DNA from: an uncultured Clostridia bacterium
Lineage (GTDB): Bacteria > Bacillota > Clostridia > TANB77 > CAG-508
Reading direction: 5' to 3'
DNA length: 64,000 bases
NCBI GenBank assembly: GCA_947594845.1
Contig: CANQEI010000003.1
Location: 41,010 to 105,009, forward strand
The notes beneath the pieces are model-generated. The model was not told where the DNA came from. It was given only the letters and a program-made list of their open reading frames with translations, and did not search any database. The translations under genes were made by a program, and so were the position numbers. Shown here one piece after another: positions 26,856 to 32,898 of this stretch; position 1 is the first letter of the stretch; the number at the start of each line of letters is the position of its first letter.

Positions 26856-28334
26856 TTATTCTTCTGTGCTAGATTCAATTAAAGCATCTATCATATTTAC
26901 TATATCTGCTTCATTTATAGTTTCACCAGCTTTTAAATCTTCTTCATCTTCTCCAGAAAATTTAGCCGTTTCTACTATTGGCAATAATTCTTTTAATGTT
27001 TCTCTATCAAAATCATTGTCTTCATTCATTACTTCTATTAACATACAATAGTTTGAATCTAATTTTGTATATACAATTAATTCGTTTGTTCCACCTACAC
27101 TTAATTCAATAGTAATAAATTCTACACCATCTATTGTTTCTGCTTTAACATCTGAAACTTTTCCACCAACATTTTTAAAAGTTTCTTCTAATTCACTCTT
27201 TAGGGATGTTATATTTTTTTTCAAATCTTCATATCTTACTGGTTGTATCATCAAATTAGCCAACCATGTTGAATCTTCATCCTGTAGCTGTATTGTATTA
27301 TTAGTATCATCTATTTTATACTCTAAATTATCTGGTATGTATAGTGTAAATCCTGAAAACTTAACTTCTTGTGAAGATGATGATGGCGTATTTGTTGAAT
27401 TTCCAGTATTGTTATCTTTGCCTTCATCTTCTTCATCTTTATTTTCATTTGATGTAGATGATATTTTTTTATCTTCTTTTGATTCTTTTTCTCCACTATT
27501 ATCTATGAAAGCTGAAAAAATAATTAAGCTTATTACAGCTACAATTATAACAATCAATACGATTATAACACATACCTTTACTACACCATTATTATTTTTT
27601 TTAGGCTGATTGTTATTATTTACACTCTGTTGAGTCTTTTGTTGATTTGCTTGTACATTGTTACTGTTAGATTGTGAATAATTATTTTGTTGTGCATAAT
27701 TACTACTAGGTTGTGAATAATTACTTTGTGATGCATAATTGCTACCAGACTGTGAATAGTTACTTTGTGGCGCATAATTATTAGATTGTGTGTTATTACT
27801 TTGTGGTGCATAATTATTAGATTGTGTATTATTACTTTGTGGTGCATAATTATTGTTTGATTGTGCATAGTTTCCGCTATATTGCATATTATTACTTGGC
27901 TGCGCATATTCATTATTAGATTGTATATTATTGTTTGGTTGTGTATAGCCATTATTAGATTGCGTATTATTGTTTGACTGTGCATAGCCATTATCATATT
28001 GTGTATTATTGTTTGACTGTGCATAGCCATTATCATATTGTGTATTATTGTTTGGCTGTGCATATCCATTATTAGATTGTGTATTATTATTTGGCTGTGC
28101 ATAGTTATTATTAGATTCTATATTACTATTTGGTGGTGCAAACCTACTGTTAGATTGCCCATAATTACTTGTTCCATCATTTCCTTGATTGGAAGTAGAT
28201 GTATTACCATAATTATAAGAACCTCCATTTTGAGAATTTAAATCATTAGTAGTTGATTTTTGCACTAATGTACCACACTTAGGACAAAATATATCATTTT
28301 CTGTTAATGGTTCTCCACATTTACTACAATTCAT
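26856..28334 (-). CDS. Cargo protein D: N-terminal zinc-ribbon, long N/Q/S/Y-rich repeat region, one TM helix, C-terminal extracytoplasmic domain
   Basis: MNCSKCGEPLTENDIFCPKCG (CxxC-n11-CxxC). About 165 aa of YAQ(P/S)NNNTQSNNG-type repeats. TM VVKVCVIIVLIVIIVAVISLIIFSAFI. Start set at ATG 28334 (GAAAGGAG RBS). Confidence 0.7.
   Translation of the reverse strand: MNCSKCGEPLTENDIFCPKCGTLVQKSTTNDLNSQNGGSYNYGNTSTSNQGNDGTSNYGQSNSRFAPPNSNIESNNNYAQPNNNTQSNNGYAQPNNNTQYDNGYAQSNNNTQYDNGYAQSNNNTQSNNGYTQPNNNIQSNNEYAQPSNNMQYSGNYAQSNNNYAPQSNNTQSNNYAPQSNNTQSNNYAPQSNYSQSGSNYASQSNYSQPSSNYAQQNNYSQSNSNNVQANQQKTQQSVNNNNQPKKNNNGVVKVCVIIVLIVIIVAVISLIIFSAFIDNSGEKESKEDKKISSTSNENKDEEDEGKDNNTGNSTNTPSSSSQEVKFSGFTLYIPDNLEYKIDDTNNTIQLQDEDSTWLANLMIQPVRYEDLKKNITSLKSELEETFKNVGGKVSDVKAETIDGVEFITIELSVGGTNELIVYTKLDSNYCMLIEVMNEDNDFDRETLKELLPIVETAKFSGEDEEDLKAGETINEADIVNMIDALIESSTEE
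27610..28110 (-). repeat. In-frame degenerate tandem repeats (about 36-39 nt units) encoding the N/Q/Y-rich low-complexity region
   Basis: Reiterated ...AATAATAATACACAATCTAATAATGGATATGCACAGCC...-like units visible in the DNA. Protein repeats NNNTQ(S/Y)(N/D)NGYAQ(P/S). Confidence 0.8.
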
Positions 28335-28356
28335 CCTTTGTCTCCTTTCTACATTA

Positions 28357-29961
28357 TCAATTAACATCAAAATTTGTTAATAATTCTATTTGTTCTTCTG
28401 TAACTTGATTTTCGTTTCCTCCAATTATTATAATTAAATAATTGTTATTTGGCAATTCATAAAATAAAATTTTCTCATTAGTATAATATTTATATCTATT
28501 TCCACTACTATCTGTTGAATTACTTAATTGAGTACGTCCTCTTTCATATACTTTAAAGTTTTTATCATTTACTGTAATATCTTGCAATTGCTTACAATTT
28601 TCAAATTTTCCTAAGCCTGTATTAATTTCTTCATTTAATTGCTCTATTTCACTGTTTATATCTGATATCGTAGTGAGTCTGTATGCTACATCATATTTTC
28701 CTATTCCCAGCTCATCATTATATTCCACTGTATAATTTCTTTCTGCATAAAGATTATTTAATTTATCAACTTCTTCATAATTTTCTGGCAATTTCAATGT
28801 TATTTCTTGGGTATTTTCATATGTGTAATCAGAATATTTTTTTAATTTACCTATTAAATATCCATTTTCTTTTACTATATCTATGTTACTTGCAATATTT
28901 TTAGATTCATTGATTTTTATCATATTTACTAATTCTTTTGGTATTCCTAAATCCATAGCAGATATTGCAGCTACAAAAATATGATTTTTATCTAATTCAA
29001 AAATCAATTCAATATTTTCTGTATCAATTCCATTGCTTGTATATTTATTTCTATAAATATACGCTAAATTTTCATCTTCATATTTATTTAATTGTTCTTC
29101 TACATTTTCATAAGAATCTAAATTATAATTTAAAAATATATTTTTACTTTCATCTTTATCTAAACATTCAAATATACTTCTTGGCAATATCGATGTATTC
29201 AAACTTATAGTTCCTAAATCTTCAACGCCTTGGAACTCATAATGTCCTAATTGTGTATTATACTCTGTTAATTTAAAATTACTTGGAATTGAATATTTTA
29301 CCAAATAGTTATTCTCTGCAATCTCTTCTTGTTTTGTATCTTTCAATAAATCAGAAACTTCATGTTGCTCAGAATATTTAATTTCTTGAGTTTCAATATT
29401 TATACCTGTTTCAAGATTAAAATTCTCTTCATTTAAATTAAAATTATTTATTATACTATTAGCATTGTCTATCAATATGTCAAAATATTCATATGTTGCC
29501 TCATATGTAATAATAACTAATTTATCTTCATATCTATATGTGCTTATCATAGCTTGTCTATCATTAGTTTCAAATAACATCTTATAACCATCAATATTTT
29601 GCTTTGTAATTTTAGCAGGCTCCTTATAAATTAACTTATAATCAGGATTCTGTTCTTGTATATTATAAATTAAACTATCAAATATTTCTTCTATTGTGCT
29701 ATATTGTTTTTCTTCTTGTAATTCGCTTAGTTTAAAATTCAAACTACTTTTACTCTTTTTATGAATTAAATTGATTTCCATATCTTCCTGTTTATCTACT
29801 TCCCATGTATCATCATATTTTACTGAGTAATTAACCGTAGTTACAACATTTATTTTATTTTTTTTCGCATAATTATATATTAGTACCGCTACAACTATTA
29901 GTATTAATATTGCTAGTAAAACAATTATTCTTTTTTTATTTTTTTCTAAAAATTTTCTCAT
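28357..29961 (-). CDS. Cargo protein C: N-terminally membrane-anchored 534-aa protein, no recognisable motif
   Basis: TM IIVLLAILILIVVAVLIY. Overlaps the upstream gene by 4 nt (ATGA), consistent with an operon. Confidence 0.6.
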   Translation of the reverse strand: MRKFLEKNKKRIIVLLAILILIVVAVLIYNYAKKNKINVVTTVNYSVKYDDTWEVDKQEDMEINLIHKKSKSSLNFKLSELQEEKQYSTIEEIFDSLIYNIQEQNPDYKLIYKEPAKITKQNIDGYKMLFETNDRQAMISTYRYEDKLVIITYEATYEYFDILIDNANSIINNFNLNEENFNLETGINIETQEIKYSEQHEVSDLLKDTKQEEIAENNYLVKYSIPSNFKLTEYNTQLGHYEFQGVEDLGTISLNTSILPRSIFECLDKDESKNIFLNYNLDSYENVEEQLNKYEDENLAYIYRNKYTSNGIDTENIELIFELDKNHIFVAAISAMDLGIPKELVNMIKINESKNIASNIDIVKENGYLIGKLKKYSDYTYENTQEITLKLPENYEEVDKLNNLYAERNYTVEYNDELGIGKYDVAYRLTTISDINSEIEQLNEEINTGLGKFENCKQLQDITVNDKNFKVYERGRTQLSNSTDSSGNRYKYYTNEKILFYELPNNNYLIIIIGGNENQVTEEQIELLTNFDVN

Positions 29962-31682: not shown

Positions 31683-31686
31683 TATT

Positions 31687-32898
31687 TTATCCTCCTATAT
31701 ATTTTTTTAAGACTTCTACAATATATTTACTTGCTTCTTCAGCATCATTTTTATTTAAATAAACATCATGAAAAGCCTCTGCTATTGTTTCATCATATAT
31801 ATAATTTCCTTGTTCATCTTTAGCCAATGCATATTCTGATATTTGTCCTCTCCATTCATCAAAATCAACACTTCCATGGTCTCTTTGATAATTTTCGTAA
31901 GCTTCTTCCAACATTTGCTTAGCCAATTCTCCATTTCCATATTCTTCACATATATCATAAAGAGTTTGCATTTGATTCTCTTCAATTAGTACAATTGAAT
32001 CTGTATCATATTTATTTAGCACAGCTATAAAAGATAAATAGTGTCCTAACTCATGTGCCACTGGAGAATATCTGCTAGAATTTTTAGGGAAATGCCCCGT
32101 TTTTGAAGATGTTGCAACAGATGCATCAAGTCTTTGCGGATTTAGAAAATATTTTGCATTTAATTGAACCTGTGTTTTAATTACCCAAGGTCTAGTAGTA
32201 CTTGTATTTGATGTAGCAAAAGGAAATACTGGCATAAATAAAGCTATTACATCTGCATTGGACATATCTAAATTTGTCAATGTTAAATTAGTTAAATACT
32301 TTCTTGTTCCTGGATATTCATCATAAATCTCTTTTATTACATCTTCTAATTCTCTTGCAAATTCTGTATCCATTTCTCCTAAGTTTACTGCTGTAATAGA
32401 ATACTTATCGATTATATCGTTTTCTATTTCTATCATTTCTTTAGAATAATTTCCTGTTTTTTGATTTTCTGAGTCTTCACGAATTAATTCATATGCATCA
32501 TCTATGCCATTTAATGAAACACCAGTATACACATTGTCCGTTATAATAGCTGTTTTATATTTTCCTTTACTTTTAGTTGTATTAGTAGTATTAGAAGTTG
32601 TATTGTTACTCGAATCAGTATTACTACTATCATTTTTCGAGTCATTATCTTCTTCATATAATATACTTTCTCCAATATAATAATTTCTTTTTTTAGTTTT
32701 TATAACTACAAAATATGCTGACAATGCTAGTATTAATATAATAATTAATATAGTAACAGTAATTGGGAAAGCAACATCTGAGCCTTTATTAGAATTGTCT
32801 TGGAAATTATTTCTTGAATTATTTTTTAATATATTTCCGCATTTATCGCAAACCTCTTGATTTGGATTTACTACTTTTCCACATTTATTGCAAATCAT
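31687..32898 (-). CDS. Cargo protein A: zinc-ribbon, TM helix and extracytoplasmic zincin-like metallopeptidase domain (HExxH)
   Basis: MICNKCGKVVNPNQEVCDKCG, TM FPITVTILIIILILALSAYFVVI, then VAHELGHYL and a downstream ETIAEAFHD. Confidence 0.6.
   Translation of the reverse strand: MICNKCGKVVNPNQEVCDKCGNILKNNSRNNFQDNSNKGSDVAFPITVTILIIILILALSAYFVVIKTKKRNYYIGESILYEEDNDSKNDSSNTDSSNNTTSNTTNTTKSKGKYKTAIITDNVYTGVSLNGIDDAYELIREDSENQKTGNYSKEMIEIENDIIDKYSITAVNLGEMDTEFARELEDVIKEIYDEYPGTRKYLTNLTLTNLDMSNADVIALFMPVFPFATSNTSTTRPWVIKTQVQLNAKYFLNPQRLDASVATSSKTGHFPKNSSRYSPVAHELGHYLSFIAVLNKYDTDSIVLIEENQMQTLYDICEEYGNGELAKQMLEEAYENYQRDHGSVDFDEWRGQISEYALAKDEQGNYIYDETIAEAFHDVYLNKNDAEEASKYIVEVLKKYIGG

Follow-up and report, generated by a model that had tools for sequence, protein, structure and literature searches.

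We identified in a 64-kb stretch of the genome of an uncultured Clostridia bacterium (the whole stretch, hereafter the window) an 8.1-kb gene-intervening element that splits the spore-coat gene cotJC and carries, next to a frameshifted recombinase gene, a discrete and intact operon of the host type. The operon has four genes (A, B, C and D) for extracytoplasmic and membrane proteins, and it is a copy of a chromosomal cassette that is conserved in gut Firmicutes. The account that we favour, and hold to be somewhat probable, is that this cassette was captured by a cotJC-specific recombinase element, that its products form a complex in the cell envelope and that the element is probably locked in place. 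The element belongs to a known kind; the cassette, a conserved system that has yet to be characterised, combines folds that are known.

The boundaries of the element follow from the gene that it interrupts (Table 1). To its left lie cotJA, cotJB and the 5' part of cotJC, and to its right the recombinase gene and the remainder of cotJC. In-silico removal of the 8,080 bp between the two parts (26777-34856) produced an intact open reading frame (ORF) for an Mn-catalase/CotJC protein of 195 amino acids, and the attachment site reconstructed for the excised form (attP) is a perfect inverted repeat (palindrome) around ATATAT. Intervening elements with large serine recombinases are known from skin in sigK, SPbeta in spsM and gin in gerE (PMC5595907; PMC4191935; PMC5025042), and gin, in Bacillus cereus ATCC 10987, is a non-phage intervening element (PMC5595907). 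cotJC has also been named as a gene in which integration is frequent (bioRxiv 10.1101/2021.11.22.469490, citing Abe et al. 2013). Like skin, SPbeta and gin, the cotJC element splits a mother-cell sporulation gene whose ORF is restored by precise removal, has a large serine recombinase gene at one end and is bounded by short attachment (att) sites with inverted-repeat arms; like gin, it is free of phage genes. Unlike them, it is very small, has a conserved host-type envelope operon as its sole cargo and encodes a frameshifted recombinase, which makes developmental excision doubtful.

The cargo of 6 kb forms one operon in the order A-B-C-D and has both a promoter and a terminator. The four ORFs are co-directional on the minus strand and tightly packed, with 4 nucleotides (nt) between A and B, a 4-nt overlap (ATGA) of B with C and, counted to the ATG at 28334 as the start of D, 22 nt between C and D; a Shine-Dalgarno sequence precedes each of the four starts. 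The putative promoter is located in the divergent intergenic region, about 50 nt before the start codon of A. Promoter-like hexamers are no commoner than chance, with 64 found against 72 expected from shuffled sequence, so that this promoter is supported by its position alone. The terminator is a strong one and folds with -20.6 kcal/mol (z = -5.9), and none of 200 shuffles folded equally well. Searches with phage families (PHROG) matched A-D at the zinc-ribbon N-termini of the proteins and nowhere else, no relative of A was found among 2.9 million viral contigs, and the only match in PADLOC (PD-T4-6, 22 bits) fell on the low-complexity linker and transmembrane region of D. As these matches are confined to low-complexity or zinc-ribbon stretches, we rejected phage and defence-system readings of the four genes. 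These results bear out a preliminary description of the same DNA, which had proposed from the letters of the sequence a four-gene operon for envelope and secreted proteins, equipped with an extended -10 promoter and a terminator of its own and unrelated to phages.

To place the operon among related genomes, we scanned one genome per species for the HExxH motif region of A, a pattern conserved across 96 genomes; the scan returned 96 relatives, and 80 loci were analysed by ORF-by-ORF BLAST. The relatives are metagenome-assembled genomes (MAGs) from the gut, labelled Clostridia, Clostridium, Bacilli, Tenericutes, Erysipelotrichaceae or Coprovivens. The order A-B is kept in 78 species-level loci and A-B-C in all 73 where the contig allows it to be seen, with a median 4-nt overlap at the B/C junction. 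C is followed by a D-like gene in at least 52 of 69 loci; in four more, BLAST overlooked a zinc-ribbon gene. Because D is variable, or undetected in one subgroup that also has a single-domain C, the conserved core is A-B-C. The first three contexts inspected had the same A-B-C-D order on an ordinary chromosome, without recombinase; a recombinase is almost absent from the cassette loci, and none of the 80 lies inside cotJC. The preliminary description had asked whether the four genes stay linked with and without the recombinase or occur elsewhere as scattered singletons. They form a strongly conserved set, kept in relatives that almost all lack the recombinase.

The same comparison qualifies the earlier description of the cargo as self-contained. 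It is indeed one operon, but its core is A-B-C, and relatives often adjoin a second operon that is missing from the window. This operon encodes MoxR, DUF58, small membrane proteins, VWA and TPR proteins in the manner of the Bat (Bacteroides aerotolerance) operons (PMC3557215; PMC5700661), and it adjoins the cassette in 16 of the 80 loci, including 10 of the 13 labelled Clostridia. Its placement is upstream, downstream or divergent (L003, L006, L008 and 13 further loci). The literature that we retrieved holds no description of an association between the cassette and a Bat-like operon. The small membrane proteins encoded between DUF58 and VWA match no Pfam family.

At the N-terminus of protein A lies a short zinc ribbon of the CxxC..CxxC type, which Pfam matched below its cutoff (E 8e-4). 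A linker of differing length and composition between species joins this ribbon to one transmembrane helix (residues 39-69), and an ectodomain of about 290 residues follows. Two motifs of the ectodomain, HELGH (H282, E283 and H286) and DETIAEAFHD (E370, E374, H377 and D378), have these seven residues invariant in 19 homologues of 49-64% identity, and the protein of the window retains every one of about 90 family-invariant residues. An AlphaFold2 model (pLDDT 80-98 over residues 121-400) places the HExxH motif on a predicted helix (278-296) and E370, E374, H377 and D378 on another (368-385), both beside a three-stranded sheet, with the Glu of ExxxD as the candidate third zinc ligand. This predicted layout is as expected of a gluzincin (thermolysin-type HExxH...ExxxD), including the downstream helix with E-A-F-H-D and a preceding Glu, all invariant. 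Unlike gluzincins, however, A has no Pfam or significant Foldseek match, has a spacing of 84-88 residues between HExxH and Glu, with two inserted helices, and carries the domain on an N-terminal anchor of zinc ribbon and transmembrane helix. The database holds 851 homologues of A. The family is small: out of 1.84 billion representatives, 154 match at E <= 1e-30.

Protein B has a signal-peptide-like N-terminus and a trypsin-like core (Pfam Trypsin_2, 29.8 bits against a cutoff of 27.6, E 1.1e-6). Its best match among PDB sequences was the S1C-like ectodomain of the anti-sigma factor RsgI9 of Clostridium thermocellum (7sjy, E 3.9e-5), followed by MucD and DegQ. In the window, the catalytic His position reads Y/N and the Ser position Q. 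Across a family alignment of 78 members, the His column holds W/Y-N/S-F/Y/L and the Ser column E/Q/V, so that neither catalytic residue occurs in any member; the position of the catalytic Asp is retained in 68. Judged from the alignment, B is a pseudoprotease across its whole family, and the loss in all 78 members makes this state a family trait rather than decay of the copy in the window. B resembles the HtrA/DegP S1C proteases and RsgI9 in its trypsin-like fold, extracytoplasmic location and mostly retained Asp, but it differs from the proteases in lacking the His and Ser and in the absence of any PDZ family reported at E <= 0.1, and from RsgI9 in being a separate secreted protein rather than part of an anti-sigma factor. 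Also unlike the S1C proteases, the core is flanked by about 255 N-terminal and 145 C-terminal residues outside the trypsin fold; these regions had no hhalign match among the operon domains compared.

Protein C, described at first as a membrane-anchored protein without a motif, proved to contain three domains of the PsbP/Mog1 fold behind its N-terminal transmembrane anchor (AlphaFold2 model, pLDDT 86.7). Foldseek matched the model to PsbP (2vu4; E 3.7e-6, TM-target 0.66, probability 1.0) and, over PsbP and CyanoP together, at E 3.7e-6 to 1e-4 and TM-target 0.53-0.66; TplEi, SciW and Mog1 were also matched. Each domain has the antiparallel sheet and helices of the PsbP/Mog1/DcrB-like proteins (DUF1795-type; PsbP, TplEi/Tli4 and the Eag chaperone SciW), and TplEi, an immunity protein of the type VI secretion system (T6SS), has tandem domain copies as C does. 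In contrast to these proteins, C falls outside their sequence families, strings three domains in tandem behind an N-terminal membrane anchor, comes from a Gram-positive organism and has no photosystem or T6SS context around it. Domains 2 and 3 are related to each other (hhalign 90%).

For protein D the most likely start is the ATG at 28334, which lies behind the ribosome-binding site (RBS) GAAAGGAG and gives 492 amino acids; the TTG at 28370, which opens the longest ORF (504 amino acids), is a less likely start. The protein has a zinc ribbon above the Pfam cutoff (Zn_Ribbon_1, 30.7 bits), a disordered cytoplasmic linker of 222 residues (N 31%, S 15%, Q 15%, Y 9%), a transmembrane helix (259-293) and an ectodomain. 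Its C-terminal domain is probably PsbP-like, judging from a weak alignment to domain 3 of C (hhalign probability 49%, E 1.8e-4); this pair and domains 2 and 3 of C were the only related pairs in the hhalign comparison of the operon domains. Homologues of D elsewhere have mostly 250-350 amino acids and other linkers. One other assembly (L001) is identical to the window except that its D repeat has one 39-bp unit (13 amino acids) fewer, either a real length variation or an assembly collapse. Because the two sequences are identical outside this unit, the ratio of nonsynonymous to synonymous polymorphism (pN/pS) between them is uninformative on selection. The architectures that the preliminary description had read from the sequence for A (zinc ribbon, transmembrane helix, HExxH and ETIAEAFHD), for B (a trypsin-fold pseudoprotease) and for D (zinc ribbon, N/Q/Y repeat region, transmembrane helix and ectodomain) were all recovered.

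In the recombinase gene of the element, one inserted C breaks the reading frame and leaves two ORFs, of 267 and 249 amino acids, the first with the Resolvase and Recombinase domains and the second with Zn_ribbon_recom. At the site of the shift the window reads NPVYI-(C)-GSIVG against NPVYIGT in homologues, and the repaired protein of 541 amino acids aligns end to end with intact relatives of 541-546 amino acids. Five further assemblies, obtained from different samples, show the identical split, which makes a one-off assembly error unlikely; two of the five match the window fully except for one repeat unit in D. Six loci with related recombinases (49-59% identity) were inspected. In five of them (L091, L092/L093, L094, L099 and L101), the recombinase adjoins a cotJC fragment broken at about CotJC residues 111-122; in the sixth (L100), only an Mn-catalase match of 55% identity overlaps the recombinase, together with a short fragment. 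The cargo of these relatives is different in each case: Phage_CRI and a methylase; Fic, RhuM and a methyltransferase; HTH_36, RhuM, a nucleotidyltransferase and DUF2207_C; patatin, M48 and TraG-like genes; or DUF2207_C alone. The same cotJC site with differing cargo therefore identifies a clade of cotJC-specific recombinases with exchangeable cargo, in which an envelope cassette was so far observed only in the lineage of the window. The recombinase lies beside the 5' part of cotJC in L094 (5733-12063) and L101 (7492-12006), and beside the 3' part in the window, L091 and L099; either orientation of insertion fits the palindromic ATATAT core. In L092/L093 (21.6-kb loci), cotJC is present in at least four pieces (residues 62-102, 97-122, 114-138 and 136-194) across 17 kb that also hold five large serine recombinase genes and Fic/RhuM genes, which looks like several elements stacked in one small gene.

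On the account that we favour, the products of A, B, C and D would assemble at the outer face of the cytoplasmic membrane. A would be a gluzincin-type zinc metallopeptidase (HExxH and ExxxD) tethered to the membrane, and B, a secreted and catalytically dead HtrA-like protein, would bind or present a polypeptide. Three PsbP/Mog1-like adaptor domains would come from C and probably one from D, all tethered to the membrane, and A and D would give the complex its contact with the cytoplasm through their short zinc ribbons. Such a complex could process or monitor envelope proteins in vegetative growth and, in relatives, would probably cooperate with the neighbouring MoxR-DUF58-VWA-TPR (Bat-like) membrane system. 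With the element probably locked in place, cotJC would stay split and the operon would be a fixed gene set rather than one that is developmentally deleted. A vegetative role for the operon is plausible; this role, its biochemical function and all other functional statements made here we infer from the genomes of uncultured bacteria.

Several points weigh against this account. Pfam reported no family, zincins included, on the ectodomain of A in 19 close and 10 distant members; a profile of the A family retrieved zinc-ribbon noise from the PDB sequences and nothing in the ectodomain; and Foldseek gave no significant match in the PDB for the full-length model, the best zincins being anthrax lethal factor and PPEP-1 (E 2.4-5, TM-score about 0.2). 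The '..AEAF..' context of A is reminiscent of the third-ligand helix of the M34 family (lethal factor and PPEP-1), the nearest known gluzincins to suggest themselves; this resemblance stays an unconfirmed lead because lethal factor and PPEP-1 appeared in Foldseek only at E > 2. The peptidase activity of A is putative and its topology uncertain; in the window, KTKKR directly follows the transmembrane helix, contrary to the positive-inside rule. The physical interaction of the four proteins is a proposal. The Bat-like link is partial, with no MoxR, DUF58 or VWA homologue in the 64-kb window, and may reflect shared synteny in one clade. Our view spans 64 kb of the genome, and a second chromosomal cassette or a trans-acting recombinase is possible. 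The out-of-frame codon at the shift in the recombinase is CGG (AUA-CGG), a codon expected to be rare at 27% GC, and the frameshift may be bypassed.

A wider interpretation, possible but tentative, is that A-B-C(-D) is an undescribed extracytoplasmic machine of gut Firmicutes, in which a new zincin-like family is joined by an obligate partner of the pseudo-HtrA type and by PsbP-like adaptors, that this machine works with the Bat-like system, and that intervening elements in sporulation genes can shuttle such envelope modules between lineages. If true, elements with an intact recombinase would delete host envelope modules from the mother cell only.

The frameshift also weakens the excision scenario. 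We regard it as unlikely that the element is a working developmental switch, with the recombinase produced by +1 frameshifting or supplied in trans and with excision in the mother cell restoring cotJC and removing the operon there. Its att sites are intact, so that excision would restore cotJC exactly, both halves of the recombinase are still ORFs, the shift site AUA-CGG includes the presumably rare codon CGG, and related intact elements occupy the same cotJC site. The element also retains a small ORF that overlaps the start of the recombinase. Similar ORFs of 37-54 amino acids (..DLK.(I/L)IL(Q/E)..E(E/Q).C..) precede or overlap the related recombinases of L091, L092, L094, L099, L100 and L101, and this ORF may encode a recombination directionality factor or a leader peptide. 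Yet no known frameshift signal was identified, although no test was aimed at one, and all six assemblies seen have the integrated form. Exact searches for the attB junction (TTCACAGCCGCATATATTGCATGTAAAGG) in JGI metagenomes and for the attP junction (TTCACAGCCAAATATATGGCTGTGAA) in IMG/VR returned no matches, in collections that probably exclude the source samples (rabbit-gut runs ERR106636xx). The preliminary description had anticipated excision, with loss of the four genes from the mother-cell chromosome; the restoration of cotJC by precise removal stands, and the split of the recombinase by a 1-nt insertion weakens the rest.

The preliminary description had further likened the cassette to a transmembrane signalling module. 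As an anti-sigma or RsgI-type system, its ectodomains would sense a ligand of the envelope or the environment and the zinc ribbons of A and D would relay the signal to a regulator, a role suggested by the RsgI9 match of B and by the combination, in both A and D, of a cytoplasmic zinc ribbon, one transmembrane helix and an ectodomain. No sigma factor, response regulator or kinase, however, is conserved by the cassette in the 80 loci, and B is secreted rather than membrane-spanning. The ribbons are generic CxxC..CxxC modules of about 22 residues joined to the membrane by variable linkers, and neither Pfam nor NCBIfam reports an anti-sigma domain in A-D. We consider signalling of this kind quite improbable, and the earlier suggestion found no support. 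That the cargo is instead a functionless, decaying remnant stranded with a broken recombinase is very unlikely, for although the recombinase is frameshifted and the repeat linker of D unusually expanded (492 amino acids against a typical 250-350), pure decay is contradicted by four intact ORFs and the family-invariant residues retained in A, while the alignments of B and C to their families run over the full length and the RBSs, promoter and terminator are intact.

The cotJC element is a further, clear example of how a spore-coat gene can be interrupted by an intervening element of the non-phage type, here with a host-type envelope operon as the entire payload. It shows that, for one recombinase clade, a single site in cotJC serves as the landing pad and the cargo is interchangeable. 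It also defines a widely conserved cassette of uncultured gut Firmicutes, made up of an HExxH membrane protein whose ectodomain has no Pfam family, a pseudo-HtrA and PsbP-like repeat proteins. The recurrent adjacency of this cassette to MoxR-VWA genes offers a handle on the enigmatic Bat-like systems.

Table 1. Features of the cotJC element in the window, and small ORFs next to related recombinases (positions of the latter are those of the respective locus).
Feature	Position	Strand	Description
Gene-intervening element	26777-34856		8,080 bp inside cotJC
cotJC 5' part	26421-26776	plus	Mn_catalase profile positions 1-133, E 2e-32; first ~118 codons
cotJC 3' part	34857-35088	plus	Mn_catalase profile positions 144-197, E 8e-13
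attL	26760-26785		TTCACAGCC-GCATATAT-GGCTGTGAA; TTCACAGCC..ATATAT common to attR
attR	34840-34865		TTCACAGCC-AAATATAT-TGCATGTAA
Gene A	32898-31687	minus	403 amino acids; zinc ribbon, transmembrane helix, HExxH ectodomain
Gene B	31682-29958	minus	574 amino acids; secreted trypsin-fold pseudoprotease with extra N- and C-terminal regions
Gene C	29961-28357	minus	534 amino acids; N-terminal anchor, three PsbP/Mog1-like domains
Gene D	28334-26856	minus	492 amino acids from ATG; zinc ribbon, N/S/Q/Y-rich disordered linker, transmembrane helix, C-terminal ectodomain
D linker tandem repeats	27661-28156	minus	39-bp (13-amino acid) units; Tandem Repeats Finder (TRF) period 39, 5-7 copies
Cargo promoter, sigma-A-like, extended -10	32980-32951	minus	TAGAAA-N18-TGtTATAAT; consensus match only
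Cargo operon intrinsic terminator	26791-26838	minus	19-bp hairpin and U8
Large serine recombinase gene	33182-34808	plus	frameshifted by 1-nt insertion near 33965
Small ORF	33064-33189	plus	42 amino acids; overlaps recombinase start
Small ORF, L091	7285-7449
Small ORF, L099	2930-3043
Small ORF, L100	9804-9917
Small ORF, L101	9795-9908

Additional observations were made in the relatives of the cassette. Several cassette-bearing MAGs (e.g., L025, L028, L062 and L089) are labelled Muribaculaceae by their submitters; one of them, L089, also encodes CotJC, so these labels look unreliable. A single MAG contig, L025, has two tandem cassettes (461-9388), the first A-B-C-D and the second A-B-C. In L016, L052, L058, L062 and L068, recombinases lie downstream of the cassette at a distance of 3-7 kb and give no evidence that it is their cargo; in the last four, the recombinase lies beyond a gene for a glycosyltransferase-like protein and a gene with collagen-like repeats. 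These three genes follow the cassette on the opposite strand, the first encoding 361 amino acids and the second, in L058, with GPTGPTGP visible. The trio may represent another recombinase-associated spore-surface locus.

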